Below are positions 3,541 through 46,720 of a stretch of 64,000 nucleotides of DNA, in pieces. The notes below the pieces were generated by a model that saw only the letters and a list, made by a program, of their open reading frames with translations, did no database searches and was not told the origin of the DNA. Position numbers and translations under genes: made by a program. The stretch is from NCBI GenBank assembly GCA_018823285.1, contig JAHJIQ010000007.1, forward strand, positions 4,536-68,535, written 5' to 3'. Numbering within the stretch: the stretch's first letter is position 1; each line of letters opens with the position of its first letter. Source of the DNA: Pseudomonadota bacterium. Its GTDB lineage: Bacteria > Desulfobacterota > Desulfobulbia > Desulfobulbales > JAGXFP01.

Positions 3541-3735
3541 ATGGAAAATAGTGAAAAGAAGTTGCCACGTACAGAAAACGGAAATGAGCTGGCCGACCTG
3601 AAAATCAAGATTTCTCCTGAACTGTACCGGGCGTTTCAACGGTGCACCTGGGTCATAGTGAACGAAACCGGCAGGGGGCAACTTGAGATTATGGATGAAA
3701 TGGTCAGGGATTTTCTGGTAAAACATGGCTGTTAG
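3541..3735 (+). CDS. Small hypothetical protein (64 aa)
   Basis: Internal ATG of the tracked ORF 3442..3735 (MENSEKKLPRTENG...), directly upstream of the HDOD gene. No recognisable family. Confidence 0.35.
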   Translation: MENSEKKLPRTENGNELADLKIKISPELYRAFQRCTWVIVNETGRGQLEIMDEMVRDFLVKHGC

Positions 3736-3780
3736 GAATTCAGATAACGGATCGCTGCACCCGCCCAAGGGATTAAGATT

Positions 3781-4674
3781 ATGACAGAATCACTGCCGAC
3801 CAATGATGTGAGGTTCAGGCAGATTCAGGACTATATCGACCGGATGCCGAGTCTTTCGACAACCGTTACGAAAGTGCTGGAAGTGTGCAATCGTCCCAAT
3901 ACTTCTCCCAATGATCTTAACCGAGTGATTTCCCTCGACCCGGTTCTCACCGGTCAGGTCCTCAAGCTGATCAATTCGGCTTATTATTCATTGCCCAACC
4001 AGATCACGTCACTCACCAGGGCCATCATTATGCTCGGCCTGAATACCGTTAAAAACCTGGCTTTGAGTACCGCTGTTCTCGGGGCTTTCAAGTCGGATGC
4101 CTTTCAGGCCCTGTCCATGGACGGATTCTGGGCCCACTCCATCTGCGTTGGAGTGACCGTAAAAACCCTGGCCGCGAAACTTGAAATTCCAGTGGCCATG
4201 CGGGAGGAGTATTTTGTAGCCGGTCTGCTTCACGATCTTGGTAAAATCCCGCTGAACAACTGCTTTTCAGAGGAGTACAGCCGGATATTGAACCTGGCGG
4301 TCCTTGAGCAGGGGCCGTTGAAGCGTGCCGAGGAGATGATGCTTGGCTTTGATCATGGTCAGGTTGGCGGAATGATCGCCGGCAAATGGCAACTCAATGA
4401 AGCAATTACCGATGTGCTGAGCGACCATCACACTCCGGAAAATATCACCGGGGAGAGAAGTCAGATGGTGATGATGACCAGTCTGGCCAATGTCTATGCC
4501 AACATCAATCAGTTCGGTACCGCAGGGGATCAGTATCAGGATGAATCCCAGCTTTCCTGGCTGTTGGAATCACTGGGTCTTAAATGGAGTGACCTGCAGG
4601 CGATGGAGGGGACGGTCAGGGCTGAAATTGAAAAAGCACAGATTTTTCTCCAAATCTCAGAGGAGGCGTGGTGA
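3781..4674 (+). CDS. HDOD domain signalling protein
   Basis: LPSLSTTVTKVLEVCNRPNTSPNDLNRVISLDPVLTGQVLKLINSAYYSL and the later HDLGK motif are typical of HDOD domains. Confidence 0.8.
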   Translation: MTESLPTNDVRFRQIQDYIDRMPSLSTTVTKVLEVCNRPNTSPNDLNRVISLDPVLTGQVLKLINSAYYSLPNQITSLTRAIIMLGLNTVKNLALSTAVLGAFKSDAFQALSMDGFWAHSICVGVTVKTLAAKLEIPVAMREEYFVAGLLHDLGKIPLNNCFSEEYSRILNLAVLEQGPLKRAEEMMLGFDHGQVGGMIAGKWQLNEAITDVLSDHHTPENITGERSQMVMMTSLANVYANINQFGTAGDQYQDESQLSWLLESLGLKWSDLQAMEGTVRAEIEKAQIFLQISEEAW

Positions 4675-37094: not shown

Positions 37095-39554
37095 ATGAAG
37101 AAACATATCCTGAGTGTTGTGTTGTTTGTCGTGGCAGTGACAATCTTGTCCGGCTGTGCTGTTTTCGAGAAAGGGCCGGTGGTTCCTCCTCCCTCTCCAG
37201 CAGAGTTGGCAGAGTTGCAGGAGTTTGGTGAGACGCTGGACTATCAGCGAGATATCCAGACCATCTTTGACCGCCGCTGTGTCGGCTGCCATTCCTGCTA
37301 CAACTCCCCGTGCCAGCTCAAGATGACCTCCTATGAGGGGGTCTGCCGGGGAGCGACCAAGACCAGGGTCTATAATGGAACACGTCTTGAAGCCGTCGCC
37401 CCGACCAGGCTCTTTATTGACGAGACTACCACTGAAGGATGGCGAAAGCGTGATTTCGTCGATGTGACCGGTCACGAAAAGGGGCTTGGCCCTGATTCAT
37501 TCATGTATCAGCTGCTTGATCTTAAGCAGGGAAATCCTGAGGTCAAAGGAGAGTACGATTCCGAGGCCAAGGATCTGGTCTGCTCACAGTCTGATCGCGA
37601 ACTGAAAAAATTCATGCGGAAAAATCCCCACGCCGGGATGCCGTTTGGTTTCCCCGAGATCAGCAAGGATGAGCGGCGAACCCTGAAAGCCTGGCTGGCT
37701 GCAGGCGCCAAAGGGCCGAGTCCGGAAGCGGACAGGATTCTGAAGATCCCTGCCAATGGCGAGATGGGTGAAGCGGTCATCAACAGATGGGAGGATTTTC
37801 TTAATGACGATTCTCCCAAAACGGTGGTGACTGCCCGCTATATCTATGAGCATCTTTTTCTTGCCCATATCGGATTTGAAGAGATTCCAGGTGATTTTTT
37901 CCGTCTGGTGCGCTCGCGCACTCCCGCCCCGCAGCCGGTGGATGAGATCGATACCGAGAAACCGTATGACGATCCCGGCGGGACGTTCTTTTATCGCTTT
38001 CTCAAAGAGCATAGCACCATCGTCTTCAAGACCCACATCATCTATCGATTAAGCGACGCGCGAATGGCCCGTTATCGGGAGCTTTTTCTGGAACCGGACT
38101 GGCCGGGAGAAACCATTATCGATCCGGGCTACGATCCTGATGGGTCGGCCAATCCCTTCTGGACCTTCAGGCAGATTCCACCCCGCTCCCGTTACCGGTT
38201 TCTCCTTGATGACAGCCGGTATTTCATCATGACCTTCATTCGCGGCCCGGTCTGTAAAGGGCAGATTGCCCTGAATGTTATCAATGACCATTTCTGGGTG
38301 ATGTTCCTCGATCCGGAGGTTGATCTTGCGGTCAATGATTCTGAGTATCTGGAGCGGAACATTGCCAATCTGCGGATGCCCATTGAAGACCGTGGCAGAT
38401 CGATCCTGGGAGCATATCTTCCCTATGCGGAGGCACAGAAAAGATACGTGATCAACAGGGCGATTGCCTATCAGGAAGCTTATCCGGAGGGGCAGGTGCT
38501 TGGAAATATCTGGGACGGAGATCGTGCAGAGTCAGACCCGTTTCTGACCATTTACCGGCATTTTGACAGCGCCACGGTGATTGCAGGGCCGGTGGGTGGG
38601 TACCCCAGAAGCGGCTGGGTGATAGACTTCCCTTTGTTTGAGAGGCTCTATTATAATCTGGTGGCCGGGTTTAATGTCTTCGGCAATGTCAAAGAGCAGG
38701 CTGGGATCAGAATGTATATGGATCTGCAGCGACGGGAGGGAGAAATGCTGTTTCTTGATTTCCTGCCGGCTGAAGCTCGCGATCCGGTATTGCGGCTCTG
38801 GTATCCGACCATGCTTTCCTACTGGTTTGCCTCCGACGAGGTTGAGATGTTGGAGAATGGGATCGAGACCGGAGTCTATTACCCGGAAATCCGGGGAAAT
38901 CCGGTGGATTACAAGGATGATTTTTTTGACCAGGTCATAAGCAATCGACTGCACCCGGATATTGGCTATGGTTATGACGGGATCAATTTCCATGACGATG
39001 ATCTTGACCGAACACCGGCAGAAAAAATCTCCTCCGAGAAAGATCTTGATCTGGAGTTTCGAAAACTGTCCCACCGAAGCGGCGGTTTTGCCAAAGGAAT
39101 TCCGGCAAAAGGGGATGTCGTCTTTATTCGTTTTACACGGGAAGGGCAGGAGGACCTGGTGTATACCATGATCCTCAACCGCTATCATGAGGATGTCGAG
39201 TTCATCAAGGGAGAAAATTGGCGCCTGAACAAAGACAAGGATACGGTCCATTTCCGTAAAGGGTTTCTTGGTGCCTATCCCAATACTTTTCTGCAGGTGG
39301 AATTAACTGAAGCTCCGCAATTTTTCAGAATGCTCGACAGCATCGCCGAGAAGCCCGATTCATACTATAGATTCTTTCAAAAGTTCGGGGTGAACCGTTC
39401 TGACCTGAAGTTCTGGGAGATATCCGACTTTTTCAATGAACGGTTCAAAAAGGACGAGCCGGAAACAGCCGGAATTTTCGATCTGAACAGATACACCAAC
39501 GAAGTGAAGCCGCCAGGATTCTGGGGCCGCCTGTTGTTTCATCTCAGAGACTGA
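37095..39554 (+). CDS. cti: Fatty-acid cis/trans isomerase (Cti)-like periplasmic heme-c lipoprotein
   Basis: Lipobox ILSGC. A single N-terminal heme motif in the context IFDRRCVGCHSCYNSPCQLKMTSYEG, as I recall it for the Cti family. Size ~820 aa. Confidence 0.65.
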   Translation: MKKHILSVVLFVVAVTILSGCAVFEKGPVVPPPSPAELAELQEFGETLDYQRDIQTIFDRRCVGCHSCYNSPCQLKMTSYEGVCRGATKTRVYNGTRLEAVAPTRLFIDETTTEGWRKRDFVDVTGHEKGLGPDSFMYQLLDLKQGNPEVKGEYDSEAKDLVCSQSDRELKKFMRKNPHAGMPFGFPEISKDERRTLKAWLAAGAKGPSPEADRILKIPANGEMGEAVINRWEDFLNDDSPKTVVTARYIYEHLFLAHIGFEEIPGDFFRLVRSRTPAPQPVDEIDTEKPYDDPGGTFFYRFLKEHSTIVFKTHIIYRLSDARMARYRELFLEPDWPGETIIDPGYDPDGSANPFWTFRQIPPRSRYRFLLDDSRYFIMTFIRGPVCKGQIALNVINDHFWVMFLDPEVDLAVNDSEYLERNIANLRMPIEDRGRSILGAYLPYAEAQKRYVINRAIAYQEAYPEGQVLGNIWDGDRAESDPFLTIYRHFDSATVIAGPVGGYPRSGWVIDFPLFERLYYNLVAGFNVFGNVKEQAGIRMYMDLQRREGEMLFLDFLPAEARDPVLRLWYPTMLSYWFASDEVEMLENGIETGVYYPEIRGNPVDYKDDFFDQVISNRLHPDIGYGYDGINFHDDDLDRTPAEKISSEKDLDLEFRKLSHRSGGFAKGIPAKGDVVFIRFTREGQEDLVYTMILNRYHEDVEFIKGENWRLNKDKDTVHFRKGFLGAYPNTFLQVELTEAPQFFRMLDSIAEKPDSYYRFFQKFGVNRSDLKFWEISDFFNERFKKDEPETAGIFDLNRYTNEVKPPGFWGRLLFHLRD

Positions 39555-39871
39555 GATTCCGACGTATTCCTGTATTGTCTGCCGGGTCCCTGATAAGCCC
39601 CCTGGTTTTACGTTTTCCAGTGATATTGGAGGTTATAGGCCGCTGCGGTTGTCTGAAATGAAGTCATCTTGACTTTACTTCAATGTTTGTGGGAACATGG
39701 GTTTCAATGATGTGGTCCATAAATGGGATAACGGACAGTGGGTTGCTGAAAAAGTGAAACCGGGTTCCAGCTGCAGTGCCGCTTCCGTTGCCTGTCCCGA
39801 TAAGCTTAAGTTGAGCAGCTTGTCTGCTCATACGAAACTTATACCCGCAGGGTGTGAAAGGAGGGTTGGAT

Positions 39872-40081
39872 ATGAAACGTTATTTTATCGATTGCCGTGA
39901 TAATCCTGGCGAGGAGATTTGTACCGGGGCATTTTTTGCCAACAGCAAAGAAGAGCTTCTGGAGCTCGTGGTTCATCACCGGGTCAGAGTTCACAAGAAA
40001 AGAGATTCGCAGGACCTGCGGGCAAGCATCGTCAGGGATATCAAACAGGCTCCACCATTATTGAGGATGCACAGGTTGTAA
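39872..40081 (+). CDS. DUF1059-like small protein
   Basis: MKRYFIDCRD...EELLELVVHHRVRVHK matches the DUF1059 pattern. RBS gaaaggaggg. Confidence 0.55.
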   Translation: MKRYFIDCRDNPGEEICTGAFFANSKEELLELVVHHRVRVHKKRDSQDLRASIVRDIKQAPPLLRMHRL

Positions 40082-40125
40082 CCGTTTCCAGGCGCTGCCG
40101 TTTGAATGTCGAAGATTTCTCGCAC

Positions 40126-40848
40126 CTACCGGAAGACGTTGGGGCCAGGTGAAGGTGACCTTGTAGCGGGTTGCAGTCCAGCGGGATTCAGATGTCTGGC
40201 GGCTTTCGGGATAAAAAAAGATGCTGCAAAAAGAAATACTGCCAACAGATTCTGCCAGGAGAGCAATGTTTCCCATCGGCCGCTGAGCCACACCTCGGTT
40301 AATGCCACGAAAAAGAAAGTCAGGATGATGCCGCTCCCGATCTTGCCGAAGAACGTCCCCCAGAAAAATTGACTGAAGGTCACTCCGGTCAGTCCCATAC
40401 TGAAGTTGAGCGGGGTGAAAGGAAAGAAAATGAGGCGGAGATAGAGGGTGGTTGTAAAGCCGTTCTCGGTAATTTTGCCGTCGTACATTTTTAATCGATC
40501 ATCTGCCACTGAGGCTGCAAAATCTCTCCCCAGATAACGACCAATCCAGAAACTCATTGAGGCGCCGAGCATTGCGCCGGCAAAGTTGCAGATGATTCCT
40601 CCTGACAAGCCGAACAGCATCGCGCCCATGGCGGTAAAAAAACTCGCGGGCAGGAACATGGAGATGCCGAAGCCATAGATAAGAATAAAAATTATTGGCG
40701 AGGCAAAGCTGTTGGCGGCAACAAAATTCCGCAGCGCCTGCGGCTCGATATACTGCCCGACAGGGGTAAGCCGAAAAATGAGTAGGGAAGAGAGCAGAAA
40801 GAGAATCAGAAGTATTGCCTTGATCAGCGGGTAATTTTTATTTCGCAT
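40126..40848 (-). CDS. TVP38/TMEM64 (DedA-related, VTT domain) membrane protein
   Basis: 240 aa, polytopic, with the GRYLGRDF motif typical of the family. Starts 12 nt after the methyltransferase stop. Confidence 0.75.
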   Translation of the reverse strand: MRNKNYPLIKAILLILFLLSSLLIFRLTPVGQYIEPQALRNFVAANSFASPIIFILIYGFGISMFLPASFFTAMGAMLFGLSGGIICNFAGAMLGASMSFWIGRYLGRDFAASVADDRLKMYDGKITENGFTTTLYLRLIFFPFTPLNFSMGLTGVTFSQFFWGTFFGKIGSGIILTFFFVALTEVWLSGRWETLLSWQNLLAVFLFAASFFIPKAARHLNPAGLQPATRSPSPGPNVFR

Positions 40849-40860
40849 GATTTTGCCGAT

Positions 40861-41757
40861 CTATTGTTCCCTGTAACCTTTGAACAGAGCCCCGCCGGTA
40901 TACTCGGAAGTGGAAAAACCTGTTTCACCAAGAAACTCTGCATTCTGGAAACCTGCCTCCTGCATCATCTTGAGCTGGTCCCCGACCGGGACCGTGCCGC
41001 CGATTCATTGTGACCAGGCTTCAGGGCTTGCCGCCAGCGAGTCAGGCAACTCTTTTTTGAGAATAATATCGGCGAACTGCAGCCTTCCCCCCGGTTTAAG
41101 AACCCGCCGGATTTCCGTAAAGAGTTGTTTTTTCCGGGGAGAAAGATTGATGACCCCATTGGAGATGGCAACGTCAAAGGTCTGGTCAGGATATGGGATA
41201 TTATCTGTATCGACATGATGGAGTTCAAAGTTTCTGATGTTCGCGAGTTCCATATTTTTTCGGGCCCGATTGACCATCTCTTCAGTGAGATCAATACCAC
41301 AGACCCTGCCTTTTTCGCCAACCAGCCTGCCGGCAACAATCATATCAAACCCGCCGCCACAGCCGATATCGAGAACCTGACTGCCGGGTGGAATCGCATC
41401 AATTGAAAACGGGTTTCCCACGCTGCAGAAAGACGCAAGTAATTCCGCGGGGGAATTCTCCACAATGATTTGGTCATAGTTCAGTGCCAGCGCCCCATTT
41501 TTACCGGTGGGGTATTGGAATTTTCCTTCAGCAGAGACAGCCACGGCCGCATACTTGCTTCGGATGGCATCTCTGATGGTGTTGAAATTATCCGAGGCTG
41601 ATATTTCACACGAGCTCGGGAAGTGTTGTTTCTTCAAACGACTGAAGAAACTCAGAAGGGTTGTGAGGAAGCCCGGGCTTTCTTGCCGACGACCGCCGGC
41701 ATTTCCCTTCGAGGGTCAACAACGGGGATTTGAAATTGTATTCTCATTATCAGTCAT
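40861..41757 (-). CDS. ArsM-like SAM-dependent methyltransferase SELENOPROTEIN (in-frame UGA at 41005-41007, plus a probable second UGA at 41716-41718)
   Basis: The tracked ORF (41005..41637) stops at a TGA, but the frame continues for 47 more codons (IGGTVPVGDQLKMMQEAGFQNAEFLGETGF...) to TAG 40861. The UGA falls at WSQ-U-IGG, where ArsM-type enzymes have W..C(I/V)(A/G)G. Upstream, the only strong RBS (AAGGAGG, 7 nt) serves ATG 41757. That ATG is in frame through ...NPRC-UGA-PSKG... into the tracked ORF. Motif I is VLDIGCGGGFD. Confidence 0.75.
40977..40993 (-). promoter_or_regulatory. SECIS-like hairpin for the C-terminal UGA of the methyltransferase
   Basis: GGUCCC-GGUCG-GGGACC begins 12 nt 3' of the UGA. 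The GGUC-type apical loop matches classical bacterial SECIS elements. Confidence 0.6.
41684..41701 (-). promoter_or_regulatory. SECIS-like hairpin for the N-terminal UGA of the methyltransferase
   Basis: UGCCGGC-GGUC-GUCGGCA (7-bp stem including one G.U pair, GGUC tetraloop) begins 15 nt 3' of the UGA. Confidence 0.5.
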
Positions 41758-41774
41758 ATCTATCCTCCTTCAGC

Positions 41775-42065
41775 TCATTTTACAAACAGAGAGTATGCGA
41801 TCATGCCCAGACTGAAGACCGTTACGCCATGTAGAAGCGGCATGCTCCAGGGGCTGGCGTGTTCCCGAGCTTTGTAGGCCCGGTAATAGGCAAAACCAAG
41901 CAAGACAACAGTGGCAACGAGAAAGAGCCAGCGGTATCTGGCAAACCACATGGACAGGGTAAAACTTCCCAGGCCGAAACTGGCCAGGAGCAGAGGGAGT
42001 TGTCAGCAGAAGGCGTAGGCGAGTGCAGAGGTGACTGCGCCTCCGCCGACGAGTTTATTGTCCAT
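41775..42065 (-). CDS. MerT-like small membrane transporter SELENOPROTEIN (Cys-Sec pair in TM1; UGA at 42003-42005)
   Basis: Absent from the ORF track. ATG 42065 with RBS aggaga gives MDNKLVGGGAVTSALAYAFC-U-QLPLLLASFGLGSF...(96 codons) ending at TGA 41775. This resembles MerT TM1 (...ILASACCLGPLVLIALG...), with the second Cys of the CC pair replaced by UGA. Confidence 0.65.
41969..41988 (-). promoter_or_regulatory. SECIS-like hairpin for the MerT-like gene
   Basis: CCUGGCC-AGUUUC-GGCCUGG begins 15 nt 3' of the UGA (one U.U mismatch). Confidence 0.45.
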
Positions 42066-42085
42066 TTTTATCTCCTTTCCAGTGC

Positions 42086-42550
42086 TTATTTCAGAATTTC
42101 TTCAATACCGGTTACAAGTTCGGAATAATGAATGCTATGTGAGATTTTCTTTTCGATCCGTCCATCCCTTGAAATAAAATAAGTCTCCGGAATCCCTTTG
42201 GCGCCGAGGGTTTCGGCGATTCCATCTTCCGGGCCGACCGGATAGGTCAAGTGAAACTCTTTCGCGAATTTCCGGATATCCTTGTCTTTGCTCAGTGTAA
42301 AAGCGCCGAGAAAAAGAACGCCCCTGTCCTTGTAAACCTGGTATGCCCGCTGTAACTCAGGGGCTTCGGCTTTACATTTTTTTCACCAGTGCGAGCCGAT
42401 GTTTATCACCAGGGGCGTTCCTTTGAGGTCGCTCAGGATGTACGTGGTTCCTTCCAGATCGGTGAATGAAAAGTTCAATGCAGTGCTTGCATATAAAGGG
42501 CTGCCGACCAGAAGGGTCACAAGTAAATAAAATGGGACAATGTGTTTCAC
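42086..42550 (-). CDS. TlpA/ResA-like periplasmic thiol:disulfide oxidoreductase SELENOPROTEIN (W-U-K-K-C active site; UGA at 42383-42385)
   Basis: Absent from the ORF track. GTG 42550 overlaps the stop of the upstream kinase (GTGA). The protein has a signal peptide (KHIVPFYLLVTLLVGSPLYA), then FSFTDLEGTTYILSDLKGTPLVINIGSHW-U-KKCKAEAPELQRAY...GIPETYFISRDGRI. This is a full redoxin fold with Sec at the first position of the CxxC motif. 154 codons to TAA 42086. Confidence 0.8.
42345..42364 (-). promoter_or_regulatory. SECIS-like hairpin for the TlpA-like gene
   Basis: GCCCCUG-AGUUA-CAG(C)GGGC begins 19 nt 3' of the UGA (7 bp with one bulged C). Confidence 0.5.
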
Positions 42551-43602
42551 GATGAAGTGCCTCCTGCGGGTTGATTATGTATTGCCGGACCAATGGGAAG
42601 AGAGATCGTGAAAGTCGAACCTTGTCCGGGTTGACTGTCAACACTGACCGATCCATTATGCTCCCTGGCGGTACGTTCCACGATAGGCAGGCCAAGACCG
42701 GGGCCGTTTGTTTTTGTTGTGTAAAAAGGTTTGAAGATGTTTTTCTGTTCTTCCTGGGAGATACCGGGGCCATGATCCGTAACTGAAATTCTTACCGTTT
42801 TCCCGTCGGTGGACGTGCCCACAAGAATTTCTGTATTTGCCGCAGAGGATTCCACGCTGTTCTCAAGGAGCTTGGTCAGCGCTTCACGCATTCTTGCGGT
42901 GTCGCAAGGGGTCAGTGGCAGGTGTTCCGCCAGCCTGAGCAGCACCGGTTTTTTCAGGTTGTCCACGGAATTTGAAAATTCATCAACCGCTGTACGGGTC
43001 ACGCTGTTGATGTCGCATGGTTCGAGTGCCAGCGGGGCCGGATTGGAAAAACTTAAGAATATCGAGGTCAGGGTGTTCAGCTTCTTGACCTCTTCTTCAA
43101 TAACGTTCAGGAATTCGGTGACGAGCTCCCCGTGGAAATTTTTTTTCAGATACGAGGCGGCGATGCCGATTGAATGCAGGGGGTTCCTTGTTTCATGGGC
43201 CACGGCGGCGATCATGTTGCCGAGTTCAGCGGTGCGAGCGTCTTTTGCCTGCTGCCGATCGTTTTTTTCCTGTTCCGAGAGATTGAATTTCAGGTCCTTG
43301 ACCATCTGGTTGAAGACCTCGACAAATTCACTGATTTCGTCCCCGCACGACTCCTTGTAGACCACACATTTGCGGCAATCTCCCAGCTTCTGGGCGAATT
43401 CCCCCTGAACAGCTCCGTGGCAGCTGGTTCCGGCGATGGACCAGCATCGGAGTCTGCCGTAAGCCGGGCAATCTTTTTTTTCACAGCCGAGTCGTTCCCA
43501 GCATTTGACGATCTGCGGATTTTCCTCTTCCACATCATAATTGCCGGACTGCAGGGCGATCATCTTTTCCTTCAAGGACTGGAGTTTTTTGATCTTGCTC
43601 AT
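42547..43602 (-). CDS. Soluble sensor histidine kinase with an N-terminal Cys-rich two-CW-type domain
   Basis: N-terminus KCWERLGCEKKDCPAYGRLRCWSIAGTSCHG...CRKCVVYKESC (two CW dipeptides, 9 Cys), a coiled coil, then HisKA (AAVAHETRNPL) and HATPase_c (GPGLGLPIV). No TM segment. Confidence 0.8.
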   Translation of the reverse strand: MSKIKKLQSLKEKMIALQSGNYDVEEENPQIVKCWERLGCEKKDCPAYGRLRCWSIAGTSCHGAVQGEFAQKLGDCRKCVVYKESCGDEISEFVEVFNQMVKDLKFNLSEQEKNDRQQAKDARTAELGNMIAAVAHETRNPLHSIGIAASYLKKNFHGELVTEFLNVIEEEVKKLNTLTSIFLSFSNPAPLALEPCDINSVTRTAVDEFSNSVDNLKKPVLLRLAEHLPLTPCDTARMREALTKLLENSVESSAANTEILVGTSTDGKTVRISVTDHGPGISQEEQKNIFKPFYTTKTNGPGLGLPIVERTAREHNGSVSVDSQPGQGSTFTISLPIGPAIHNQPAGGTSS

Positions 43603-43633
43603 AATGACAAATCCATGCTGAAGTGCATCTGAT

Positions 43634-44968
43634 TCAGGGTTGAAGCAGGCCGAGATTTTTCATCTTGGTGCGTAGCTGCTTTCTGGAAATGCCCAGGATG
43701 ACGGCCGCGCTGGACTGGTTCCATGCCGCCTTGTCGAGGGCTTTTCTGATGATCTTTTTTTCCATTTCCGGCAGGTTCAGCTCGTTTAGTTCAAGGCACT
43801 CTTCCTCGCCGGTGGCCCTGATCTTACAGGGCAGGCACTCGATATTGATTGAATCGTGAGGGCAGAGGATGACTGCCCGCTCCATAACGTTTTCCAGTTC
43901 CCGGACGTTGCCTTGCCAGTCATATTGTTTAAGGATATCAAATACTTCCCGGTCTATCCCGTGTATTTTTTTCTTGTTCTTGCGGCAGAAGTGGTCGAGG
44001 TAATAATTGGCCAGCAGCGAGATGTCGTCCTTTCTTTCCCGCAGGGGGGGCACATTGATGGTGATTACATTCAAACGGTAATAAAGATCGGTGCGGAAAT
44101 CGCCGGAGTCGACATCTTTTTCAATGTCCCGGTTGGTGGCGGAGATGACCCTGACATCGACCATGATACTTTCTTTGCCACCCACCCGGCGGATCTCTCT
44201 TTCCTGGAGAAAGCGGAGCAGTTTTTTTTCAAGCGCGTAATCAAGATCGCCGATTTCGTCCAGGAAAACTGTGCCGCCATGGGCCATTTCGATCAGGCCG
44301 ATCTTGCGTTCTCCGGCCCCGGAAAAAGCCCCTTTCTCGTAGCCGAACAACTCGCTTTCCATCAGCTCGGAGGGGATGGTCGTGCAATCGATGGGGATAA
44401 ACGGCTTGTCGGCGCGAAGAGATGAATAGTGGACAGCCCTGGCCACCAGTTCCTTGCCGGTTCCCGATTCTCCGAGAATCAGAATGTTGGCATCGGTCTT
44501 GGCAACCCTCCGGACCAGGGAGAAGACCTCCTGCATCGGTTTGGTTTTGCCGATGATATTCAGGAACTGATGCCTGCCGGGTGTTTCGTCATCCTCGTCG
44601 CGTTCACGCGGGAAAAGCACATCATTGACCACGCTTTCCATGACGTTCAGCTTTACCGGCTTGGTAAGATAGGTGTATGCACCCTTGCGCATGGCGTTCA
44701 CGGCAAGTTCAATGGTGCCGAACGCGGTGAGCAGAATGAAGGGCGTCTCCGGGGTCATGGTCTTGACCTTTTCCAGGAGCTCTTCGCCGTTCATTCCCGC
44801 CATCTTGTAGTCGGAGATAACAAGGTCGTAGTGAGTGCTTTTGCACAGCTCAAGTGCCTCTTCACCGGAGCGGGCGGTTTCCACAACCTTGTCTTTGCCC
44901 GAGAGCGCGGCGGACAGAACCTTCAGGGAATTGATCTCGTCGTCCACCAGCAGAATTTTATATGACAT
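43634..44968 (-). CDS. NtrC-family sigma-54-dependent response regulator (REC, AAA+, Fis-type HTH)
   Basis: REC domain (LLVDDE...D in DLVISDYKMAGMNG), AAA+ Walker A GESGTGKE, sigma-54 contact loop GAFSGA, and a C-terminal HTH (AAVILGISRKQLRTKMK). Confidence 0.9.
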   Translation of the reverse strand: MSYKILLVDDEINSLKVLSAALSGKDKVVETARSGEEALELCKSTHYDLVISDYKMAGMNGEELLEKVKTMTPETPFILLTAFGTIELAVNAMRKGAYTYLTKPVKLNVMESVVNDVLFPRERDEDDETPGRHQFLNIIGKTKPMQEVFSLVRRVAKTDANILILGESGTGKELVARAVHYSSLRADKPFIPIDCTTIPSELMESELFGYEKGAFSGAGERKIGLIEMAHGGTVFLDEIGDLDYALEKKLLRFLQEREIRRVGGKESIMVDVRVISATNRDIEKDVDSGDFRTDLYYRLNVITINVPPLRERKDDISLLANYYLDHFCRKNKKKIHGIDREVFDILKQYDWQGNVRELENVMERAVILCPHDSINIECLPCKIRATGEEECLELNELNLPEMEKKIIRKALDKAAWNQSSAAVILGISRKQLRTKMKNLGLLQP

Positions 44969-44974
44969 CAGCGG

Positions 44975-46720
44975 TTATCCTCCTTGCAGGATGAGCGTGA
45001 ATTTGCTGCCTTGCCCTTCGGTGCTTTCCAGGACAAGATCGCCCCGGTGCTCCCTGGCGATCTTTTTGGAAATGGCCAGGCCCAGGCCGGTGCCCCTGGT
45101 CTTGGTGGTATAAAAAGGATTGAAGACATGTCTGATTTTGTCCGGGGCGATGCCCGATCCGTCATCTTCTACAACAAGATGGACTTTTCCCTGGACGGCA
45201 AGTGTCGAAATAGAGACCTTGCCATCCCGGTCGATGGCGTCAAAGGCATTGATCAGCAGATTGATCAGCACCTGCTTGATCTGGTTCTGGTCACAATGAA
45301 CGGGTGGAAGCGAGGAGTCGATATCGGAAACGAGAGTGATGCCATGGCTTCTGGCCTCTTCACCCAGCAGGGAAAGGGTGGTGCGGACAATCTCGCCCAG
45401 GTCGTTCGGGGCCAGCTCCTGGACCATGGGTTTGGCAAAACCGAGCAATGTCCCGGTCAGCTTGTTGATGCGTGAAACCTCATCGCTAATGACCCCGGTG
45501 AACTCTTCGATAAGGCTGCCGCTGTAGTTTTTCCGGATATAACCTGCCGCCCCGCCGATGGCGTTTAGCGGGTTTTTGATCTCATGGGCGAGGGTTGCCG
45601 CGAGCTCCCCGGTTGCGGCGAGCCGGCACAATCTTTCCTGCTCGTCGACGGCGTGGCCGAGTTTCATGACCATTTCATTGAAGGCGTTCGACAACTCGCC
45701 AATTTCATCGGTCCCGGAAACCGGGATGTTTCTGTTGAAACCTTCGTCGACCAGCCGGTCGACGGAATTTTTGAGAAGGAGGATCGGTCGGACAAGTCTG
45801 ATGATCAGCCCCAGGCCGAAAACAAGGGTGGCCGCAAAAGAGATCAGCATCAGGATGAAAACCAGCAGCCTCCGGCCTTCAAGGTCGAGGGGGCTTATGT
45901 TCTCGTAAAAAATTACCGTGCCGAAGAGAATCAGGGGGACGGCGGTCAGGAGACTGAAGGCGGTCAGGGCCCGGAAGAGAATGCTTGAGCCGAGAGTGGT
46001 GAAGGTCGTCCGGTTGATGCTGAAGAGGAGAATCATAAAGCCTACCGGCCGGAACAGATGCCCGTGCAGCCAGACGGCAGAGCCTATGGGGGCCGGGAAG
46101 AAAAGGAAGGTTGCAGAAATGCAGAGCAGGAGAAAACCGATTGCCGACCAGAGAATTTCTATTTTGCGGGTCCGGTAAAATGCGGCAAAGAGCAGCATGC
46201 AGACCAGCCCGCTTAAATAGGCGACACTGATCCAGACCAGCGGTCGGAACTGGCCGAAGATCGGGAATTTCTCGTAAATATCGGGAACCAGAAAGCCAAG
46301 CAGGGGCAGATAACAGAGCAGAAGGATCTTTTTCCGACCGGGATTTTCAGAAGAGATGGCCACGATAAAGGTCAGGAGGCCGAAACAATATCCCAGCAGG
46401 GTCTGGTACAGGAGGTTCAGGTTCAGGTGGTTCAGGTGGATAACCGCATGGAAGAAGCTGCTGATCCCTAAAATCAGGAAGGAGGCGGAGAAAAGCATCG
46501 CCCGGCTCTTGTGAACATGATCAAGGCCGGGGGTTCGGTGATGCATCAGGATAAATCTGGTGGCGATGATCAGACAGATTGAAGCGATAAGAAATTCCTC
46601 GCCCGTGTGATAATCGAGCAGGAATCCTTTATCGGTATAGTAGGAGGGCCAGTTCATCAAGAATTTGCTTTTCTCCTGATATTTTTTGCATGGACGGGAA
46701 ACCAAAAATGCACAATCCAT
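44975..46720 (-). CDS. Membrane sensor histidine kinase (multi-TM sensor, HAMP, HisKA, HATPase_c)
   Basis: About 8 TM helices, then HAMP-like, ATLAHEIKNPL (H-box) and GTGLGLAISKKIA (G2 box). An alternative start at 46657 (MNWPSYY) is possible. Confidence 0.85.
   Translation of the reverse strand: MDCAFLVSRPCKKYQEKSKFLMNWPSYYTDKGFLLDYHTGEEFLIASICLIIATRFILMHHRTPGLDHVHKSRAMLFSASFLILGISSFFHAVIHLNHLNLNLLYQTLLGYCFGLLTFIVAISSENPGRKKILLLCYLPLLGFLVPDIYEKFPIFGQFRPLVWISVAYLSGLVCMLLFAAFYRTRKIEILWSAIGFLLLCISATFLFFPAPIGSAVWLHGHLFRPVGFMILLFSINRTTFTTLGSSILFRALTAFSLLTAVPLILFGTVIFYENISPLDLEGRRLLVFILMLISFAATLVFGLGLIIRLVRPILLLKNSVDRLVDEGFNRNIPVSGTDEIGELSNAFNEMVMKLGHAVDEQERLCRLAATGELAATLAHEIKNPLNAIGGAAGYIRKNYSGSLIEEFTGVISDEVSRINKLTGTLLGFAKPMVQELAPNDLGEIVRTTLSLLGEEARSHGITLVSDIDSSLPPVHCDQNQIKQVLINLLINAFDAIDRDGKVSISTLAVQGKVHLVVEDDGSGIAPDKIRHVFNPFYTTKTRGTGLGLAISKKIAREHRGDLVLESTEGQGSKFTLILQGG

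Follow-up and report, generated by a model that had tools for sequence, protein, structure and literature searches.

A probable ArsM-like methyltransferase with two selenocysteines, one of them on an N-terminal arm, in a Desulfobulbales genome

We describe a gene on the minus strand of a 64,000-nucleotide (nt) stretch of DNA from a Desulfobulbales bacterium (contig JAHJIQ010000007.1 of assembly GCA_018823285.1; hereafter the window, to whose positions all coordinates refer). Started at ATG 41757, this gene very probably encodes a 298-residue member of the ArsM/AS3MT-like class of S-adenosylmethionine (SAM)-dependent methyltransferases that contains two selenocysteine (Sec) residues. One of these, Sec251, occupies a known substrate-binding cysteine position; the other, Sec14, lies on an N-terminal arm. 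It is possible—we hold this tentatively—that the gene represents an undescribed two-Sec ArsM-like subfamily of Desulfobulbales and Nitrospirota, in which the mobile selenol of the Sec14 arm replaces the lost chemistry of ArsM Cys44 and Cys174; in such an enzyme a Se-Se or Se-S site formed by Sec14 and Sec251 would bind or redox-cycle the metalloid.

The structure of the gene can be read directly from the window. A Shine-Dalgarno motif, AAGGAGG (41764..41770), stands before the ATG start codon (41755..41757) with a 6-nt spacer, and the frame then runs through M-T-D-N-E-N-T-I-S-N-P-R-C into a first TGA (41716..41718; CGT TGT TGA), which we read as Sec14 of a C13-U14 pair followed by P-S-K-G-N-A-G-G. 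The mechanically called open reading frame (ORF) of 210 residues begins at TTG 41635..41637, an internal codon with no Shine-Dalgarno motif upstream that we do not regard as the real start, and terminates at a second TGA (41005..41007), inside EAWSQ-U-IGG. Past this second codon, read as Sec251, follow 47 further codons (IGGTVPVGDQLKMMQEAGF...ALFKGYREQ) and the true stop, TAG 40863-40861 (extension and stop together 40861..41004); the extension is conserved in every homolog and belongs to the ArsM-type fold in the predicted model. The initial annotation of this DNA had proposed much of this layout—the well-spaced AAGGAGG before ATG 41757, the in-frame passage through R-C-U, a tracked TTG start without a ribosome-binding site, and 47 open codons as the family C-terminus—and each of these points held once the minus strand was read and the homologs were compared.

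The second TGA is securely assigned as a Sec codon at the C-terminal substrate-binding Cys position, as had been proposed. Sec251 aligns with Cys224 of CmArsM (phmmer against PDB sequences, E 2e-28), and relatives that are not selenoproteins have Cys in this column, whether canonical (P0157, P0228) or of a type that has the SNG motif described below (P0136, P0137, P0149, P0161); with the exception of P0228 these, together with CmArsM Cys224, supply the Cys homologs by which selenoproteins are conventionally recognized. Downstream of the codon lies a hairpin of the selenocysteine insertion sequence (SECIS) type, GGUCCC-GGUCG-GGGACC (40977..40993), with an apical loop that starts 21 nt after the U of UGA. 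In an ungapped family alignment of 45 nt from the TGA, compared with 500 shuffles, this hairpin forms a stem of 7 base pairs (bp; columns 15-21 with 25-31) in which 92.3% of cells are paired and five of the seven pairs show compensatory changes (for example columns 16/30, with A-U 39, G-C 28 and G-U 9); none of the shuffles does as well, and sliding the register always lowers the fit. Across the family the region has a mean z of -2.60 and the hairpin is present in 96%. This half of the finding is already known: Sec at the "UxxG" site of ArsM has been catalogued since 2008, when it appeared in a study that analysed Global Ocean Sampling (GOS) data (PMC2398784), and a 2026 review table also lists Sec-ArsM "UxxG" (PMC13188914).

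The codons were then followed across related genomes. A scan of species-representative genomes gave 80 loci, 78 of which were parsed; with two metagenome loci (L001, L002) these make up the 80 related loci considered here. The scanned loci come from Desulfobulbales, Desulfocapsaceae, Desulfopila, Nitrospirota, Thermodesulfovibrionia, one Brocadia metagenome-assembled genome (MAG) and one Geobacter MAG, and a cultured carrier exists in Desulfopila aestuarii DSM 18488 (L065). TGA is found at the C-terminal site in 80 of the 80 related loci, with a conserved tail of about 47 residues; 76 of the 80 have a TGA at the N-terminal site too (77 of 81 once the window is counted)—a pattern that goes far beyond chance. 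The start-codon analysis used 79 related loci plus the window; the Geobacter locus (L067) was left out of it, as no stop is seen upstream on its contig. An in-frame TGA lies upstream of the conserved IRxAIRxKY helix in 77 of these 80, followed by P/A-P/S-x-G. ATG stands exactly 13 codons before this TGA in 52 of the 77 orthologs, GTG or TTG stands at the same distance in five more, and 65 of the 77 have a Shine-Dalgarno-like motif before the chosen start. The first Sec codon is codon 14 in 57 of the 77 loci; this nearly fixed distance from the start could be an arm-length constraint on the protein or a matter of SECIS placement relative to initiation.

Evidence that the first TGA is translated comes from the codons around it. 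Entropies at codon positions 1/2/3, calculated over 77 loci, are 0.77/0.17/1.94 bits for Pro at +2 and 0.20/0.82/1.95 bits for Gly at +7, which shows the signature of selection at the protein level with third positions free; the conserved unit is Sec14 followed by a P-P-x-G-x-x-G-G peptide. In 35 of the 77 orthologs the stretch from the first TGA to the conserved N-terminal helix contains neither ATG nor GTG nor TTG; production of the enzyme core in these loci therefore requires that this TGA be read through, and almost none of the internal start candidates past it has a Shine-Dalgarno motif. The Geobacter homolog (L067, 44-130) reads ATG, 12 codons and TCG (Ser14), then continues as an uninterrupted ORF into the core, with the C-terminal TGA present; its Ser14 may be a natural replacement of Sec by Ser or may stem from a sequencing error. 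In two loci, L013 (~3650-3931) and L024 (~3660-3946), a thioredoxin_3-like domain of about 85 residues (a weak Pfam match, E 0.005) is fused in frame before "APT-U-TTSGG", and this domain has an in-frame TGA of its own (MNDPGGKR-U-A); these would be three-Sec methyltransferase fusions. Single-Sec forms that have no arm also occur, in Ca. Brocadia (L060) and Ca. Sulfobium (L070), and start directly at the conserved helix. L070 has additional Cys residues immediately ahead of its Sec (KEQCAGAMCSTLDAWSN-U).

The initial annotation had also proposed an N-terminal C-U pair. Such a pair is present here and in close relatives; it does not extend to the whole family, in which the residue preceding Sec14 is Gly in 22 of the 77, Val in 12, Ser in 11, Thr in 10 and Cys in 8. 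A Cys lies somewhere within -13 to +16 of Sec14 in 48 of 52, at a position that varies (-7, -5, -1, +9 or +13).

The first TGA, like the second, is followed by a SECIS-like hairpin, UGCCGGC-GGUC-GUCGGCA (41684..41701), with an apical loop that starts 25 nt after the U of UGA. By the bacterial SECIS definition that we used—a stem-loop directly after UGA whose apical loop lies some 16-37 nt from it and contains G/U—both loops qualify, with GGUCG at +21 and GGUC at +25, and the hairpins with GGUC(G) loops that had been noted after both UGAs are found at 41684-41701 and 40977-40993. The loop letters are those of the SECIS of E. coli fdhF, and the distance from the UGA is nearly that of this element. 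Folded as single sequences, the first and second hairpins beat shuffles only by a small margin (z -1.2 and -1.4, respectively); they are nevertheless the two most stable of all in-frame 30-nt windows in the gene (rank 0; z -3.2 and -4.3). Comparison across the family (30 nt, +10 to +39) gives the first hairpin a mean z of -2.06, and a hairpin of at least 5 bp follows the first TGA in 82% of cases, against 27% of control windows from the same genes. With one fixed register, 71% of cells pair at the first hairpin, compared with 65.3 +/- 1.1% in shuffles (0/500), and its covariation score is 0.272, compared with 0.184 in shuffles (0/500). We regard the covariation support as strong for the second hairpin and moderate for the first.

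Several results speak against the Sec reading, above all at the first TGA. RNAalifold over all 77 regions of the first TGA finds only a common core of 3 bp, because the registers of the hairpin differ between clades, and no single register is conserved. The initial annotation had suggested a comparison with SECIS covariance models; an Rfam scan of 38000-45000 (E up to 10) gave chance matches only, with no SECIS family, and matched neither hairpin. A profile search of the N-terminus for a Cys form of the motif returned nine matches, none covering the motif, and an exhaustive HMMER search of 1.84 billion representatives confirmed no Cys form of the arm among its best 150; in that set only P0157, a canonical ArsM, begins inside the first 28 profile positions (at 17). 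With no Cys form of the motif found, Sec14 lacks the classical Sec/Cys pairing, and the sole variant other than Sec at residue 14 is the Ser14 of L067.

These gaps bear on a second model of the N-terminus, already raised in the initial annotation, by which ATG 41757 to TGA 41716 is a separate upstream ORF of 13 codons and the enzyme starts at TTG 41637 or later, with Sec251 as its only Sec. Short leader ORFs are indeed common and the first TGA comes only 13 codons after the start, gene calls in databases begin downstream (P0001 with 179 residues, the mechanical ORF with 210), and the missing Cys form, in both the profile search and the best 150 of the representative search, fits a leader as well. 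The orthologs, however, decide against it, and we consider a leader very unlikely: 35 of the 77 have no internal start codon, and internal candidates almost all lack a Shine-Dalgarno motif, as does TTG 41637; the peptide after the TGA is conserved as amino acids with third codon positions saturated; a SECIS-type hairpin stands at the right distance; L067 has Ser in place of the stop and a continuous ORF; and the "leader" of L013 and L024 is a domain of 85 residues. Less likely still, to the point of being nearly negligible, is that the TGAs are real stops in a truncated or pseudogenised gene, or that UGA is read as Trp or Gly (code 4 or 25). Some pipelines have translated homologs with code 4, giving W at both sites, but the C-terminal site of relatives holds Cys rather than Trp or Gly, and TGA serves as the ordinary terminal stop in 30 of 80 genes (79 related loci plus the window). 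Both TGAs are moreover fixed in position with conserved flanks across Desulfobulbales, Nitrospirota, the Brocadia MAG and the Geobacter MAG (with the caveat that the Brocadia locus has the C-terminal TGA only and the Geobacter locus has Ser14), and covarying hairpins follow them. The proposals of ATG 41757 as the true start and of 41716-41718 as a second Sec codon thus stand, on the TGA conserved in 77 of 81 loci, the coding signature, the stable hairpin region, the 35 orthologs with no alternative start and the Ser14 homolog.

Public databases represent this family poorly. The GenBank entry for the window gene, MBU0480525.1, is a 179-residue "methyltransferase domain-containing protein" without the N-terminal 72 and C-terminal 47 residues. 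A protein search returned 3,785 homologs, and most of the 120 best-scoring end at 179-214 residues; eleven short entries read among those 120 all end in ...AWSQ, that is, they are cut at the second TGA. About a dozen full-length entries from short contigs (P0002-P0020) were called with genetic code 4 and have W at both Sec sites, with an N-terminal motif x-W-P-P-S-G-G-A-G-(G/S)-C-R; the DNA of two of them was checked and has TGA at both W positions. Read through both TGAs, the code-4 gene calls give full-length conserved proteins. Public protein sets hold "full-length" versions with Trp at both Sec positions, then, from short metagenome contigs called with code 4, and most other entries among the 120 best-scoring matches are shortened at both ends. 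Since most of these 120 best homologs (of 3,785) are cut at both ends, counts of selenoprotein and arsenic-methylation genes in anaerobic sediments and groundwater are biased by the shortened entries.

The fold and family of the enzyme are clear from several comparisons. Pfam places it among class I SAM methyltransferases (Methyltransf_31, E 1.7e-31), and the best NCBIfam matches are three curated Sec-ArsM models followed by the general arsenite methyltransferase model PRK11873/NF008823; the scores lie below cutoffs because the protein is without the C-terminal parts of those models. An AlphaFold model of the homolog P0007 (55% identical to the window protein; mean predicted local distance difference test (pLDDT) 75.9, predicted template modelling score (pTM) 0.78) has a confident core and residues 1-37 at a pLDDT of about 32, from which the N-terminal arm of about 37 residues is predicted to be disordered or flexible. 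A Foldseek search with this model found ArsM/AS3MT in all of the top 13 PDB matches, the best being 6CX6_A (TMq 0.68, root-mean-square deviation 2.4 A).

The active site is more divergent than the fold. Residues were mapped by counting in the phmmer alignment to CmArsM (4FS8/4KW7). Of the four ArsM cysteines (44, 72, 174 and 224) only the 224 position is kept, as Sec251. Gly201, in SNGVINL (41155..41157), stands at the Cys174 position and is invariant in the family, which bears out the earlier reading of the middle ArsM Cys (SNCV) as Gly; the Cys44 column is likewise Gly, that of YPTGK. The Cys72 column is the Val of FCSVGNP, and the cysteine is shifted: Cys111, in the FC(G/S)VGNP loop (41425..41427), is invariant and lies two residues before CmArsM Cys72. 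In canonical ArsM, where cysteine roles are understood from structural work on CmArsM, the resolving partner is the Cys44-Cys72 disulfide.

From this correspondence we infer a role for the arm, a substrate and an operon logic, which would run as follows. SelB and tRNA-Sec would recode UGA codons 14 and 251, guided by the SECIS apical GGUC(G) loops 21-25 nt downstream; the UGA fixed at codon 14 may, in addition, let translation be checked early against the availability of selenium. Sec251 would take the place of the metalloid-binding Cys224 of canonical ArsM, and the lost ligand and redox partners would be supplied by Sec14 on its disordered arm, with Cys13 adjoining it here and a Cys lying at -7, -5, +9 or +13 in other clades. 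The arm would swing into the active site, where a soft metalloid might be held in a Se-Se or Se-S chelate that Sec14 builds together with Sec251 and Cys111, or Sec14 might instead resolve an oxidised Sec251 after methyl transfer. Judged by homology, the most likely substrate is As(III), and Sb, Se or Te species are less likely. If true, a two-selenol metalloid site would be a natural experiment on substrate binding and redox cycling in ArsM-type enzymes, and would bear on what favours Sec over Cys in the handling of metal(loid)s.

Parts of this mechanism meet contrary evidence. AlphaFold places no geometry on the arm, so the contact between Sec14 and Sec251 is purely inferred. The single-Sec forms L060 and L070 also have Gly at the Cys174 position, so that compensation for this loss does not strictly require the arm. 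A single canonical As-binding position is left, and As(III) methylation is accordingly not assured; the score for NF008823 (196.9 bits, cutoff 263), like that for every ArsM model, is below the curated cutoff; and the neighbourhood is not conserved across the family and is therefore a poor guide to the substrate. Because the site is remodelled, the scores are below cutoff and the C-terminal domain is missing, Sb, Se and Te species or other nucleophiles are also possible.

The same two-Sec enzyme might accordingly act on something other than arsenite—selenide or selenols, Te or Sb species, or a thiol or selenol metabolite—or its C-U arm might mainly receive a metal passed on by the MerT-like transporter; we give this a chance somewhat short of even. 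Of the four ArsM cysteines, two or three are gone from the SNG-type clade (Gly stands for Cys44 and for Cys174, and the Cys of the Cys72 region is shifted), and some of its Cys-type members have as few as one conserved Cys (P0137, P0149, P0161). The protein scores below the curated cutoff of every ArsM model (197 against 263 for NF008823), has no canonical ArsM C-terminal domain (298 residues, against 320-380 in solved ArsM chains), and has neighbours that in different loci are MerT-like, heavy-metal P-type-ATPase-like (by sequence resemblance only) or ArsR-like. Set against this, the closest relatives in sequence and structure are all ArsM/AS3MT, and the residue upgraded to Sec is Cys224, a direct As binder in ArsM. 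By established chemistry, SAM-dependent methyl transfer to Hg(II) is unfavourable.

The reading of a two-Sec enzyme with a mobile Sec14 arm can be set beside several known systems. The arm appears to be new relative to the models, catalogues and literature that we consulted; Haft & Tolstoy 2025, which reportedly describes multi-Sec ArsM families, falls outside that scope. The arm has no match in NCBIfam 20.0 or Pfam models, is not annotated in GenBank for the window gene (the 179-residue call), and does not figure in the 2026 review table, where ArsM is entered in plain form with a single Sec (PMC13188914). We consider it of moderate interest to the selenoprotein and arsenic-biotransformation fields, and useful for the correction of annotations.

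The closest comparison is the catalogued Sec-ArsM (PRK11873/NF008823), with which the protein shares its fold, Sec at the Cys224 equivalent in W-x-x-U-(I/V)-G-G, and an intra-coding SECIS hairpin. The catalogued enzyme has one Sec (PMC2398784, PMC13188914), whereas this gene and 76 related loci have a second, Sec14; in this gene, moreover, Cys174 and Cys44 are Gly and the N-terminal extension matches no model. Canonical ArsM/AS3MT (CmArsM 4FS8/6CX6, human AS3MT 8XT7) has the same Rossmann SAM core, As-binding subdomain, VLDxGCGxG motif and C224 equivalent; its four Cys are here Gly, a shifted Cys, Gly and Sec, its C-terminal domain of about 100 residues is absent, and a disordered Sec arm is added.

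Three curated models describe ArsM-like proteins with more than one Sec: NF041537 (ArsM/AhpD), NF041536 (ArsM/DUF2284) and NF047649 (methyltransferase/UXPK-star). The likeness lies in a methyltransferase core with Sec at UxxG plus at least one extra Sec. In these fusions, however, the extra Sec is in a C-terminal domain or tail, whereas here it is N-terminal and the C-terminus lies 47 residues past Sec251 (...ALFKGYREQ). Scores against cutoffs are 291/510 bits for NF041537, 273/575 for NF041536 and 273/460 for NF047649, and the matches stop at model positions 247-248 of 283 (NF047649), 459 (NF041536) and 345 (NF041537). These models begin at about residue 52 of the protein and hence contain no N-terminal arm. 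With no C-terminal UXPK tail, DUF2284 or AhpD domain, and with scores below cutoff, the protein falls outside all three.

Mobile chalcogen tails that carry substrate or electrons to an active site are known from other enzymes, namely the C-terminal Gly-Cys-Sec-Gly tail of thioredoxin reductase and the C-terminal Cys-Cys tail of MerA. The arm may be an analogue of these, in that Sec or Cys-Sec would sit on a flexible terminus beside a buried redox or metal site, here as the vicinal C13-U14. The likeness is no more than an analogy: those tails are C-terminal, whereas the putative counterpart here is an N-terminal arm whose vicinal Cys most of the family lacks and whose contact with the active site is presumed.

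The genes around the methyltransferase add to the picture. Directly upstream lies a MerT-like membrane protein of 96 residues (41775..42065, minus strand; Pfam MerT score 25.9, cutoff 32.9) with an in-frame TGA at 42003-42005 (AYAFC-U-QLP), which places a vicinal C-U where MerT has its first-helix Cys-Cys pair. This TGA is kept in L003, L004 and L041, and a MerT-like gene is also found upstream in L001. The second upstream neighbour is a ResA/TlpA-like thiol:disulfide oxidoreductase (42086..42550, minus strand) with a TGA at 42383-42385 (GSHW-U-KKC) that is also present in L041 and is followed by a hairpin (z -2.4); a hydrophobic N-terminal stretch is a putative signal peptide. Both neighbours are selenoproteins as well, and of types already catalogued: the 2026 review table has thiol:disulfide interchange proteins with Sec and a Sec-containing "putative mercuric transport protein" (PF02411), the latter with the motif C/SxxU, in contrast to the vicinal C-U of the MerT-like neighbour here (PMC13188914).

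Four Sec codons therefore fall in three adjacent genes (ResA-like, MerT-like and ArsM-like) within 1.7 kb, which makes this compact cluster a candidate pathway for metalloids that depends on selenium. Within the subclade of the window, the methyltransferase would be co-transcribed with the MerT-like C-U membrane protein and the putatively secreted ResA-like U-x-x-C oxidoreductase, which suggests a selenol-based route of uptake and hand-over for the substrate; the match between the C-U pair of the arm and that of the MerT-like protein suggests a dedicated membrane-to-enzyme selenol relay. Clustering of neighbourhoods over the 80 loci found no universally conserved partner: a MerT-like gene occurs in 4, a ResA-like gene in 1 and a downstream DedA gene in about 10. 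The MerT/ResA arrangement is confined to the window's subclade and the neighbourhood is variable across the family. The conserved in-frame TGAs at Cys positions in two adjacent genes give indirect support for the use of Sec by the organism; the sole tRNA in the window is a tRNA-Arg.

Downstream of the methyltransferase lies a DedA/VTT-domain membrane protein (40126..40848, minus strand; Pfam VTT_dom, 71 bits). In L009, L010, L014, L025 and L026 a third Sec past the terminal TGA was considered and rejected, as what looks similar there is the beginning of the DedA gene downstream, read in another frame. Just upstream of the three-gene cluster, at 42547-43602 and 43634-44968 on the minus strand, are a histidine kinase whose N-terminus is rich in Cys (CWERLGCEKKDCPAYGRLRCWSIAGTSCHG) and a response regulator of the sigma-54 type; this pair could be metal- or redox-sensing regulators of the cluster.

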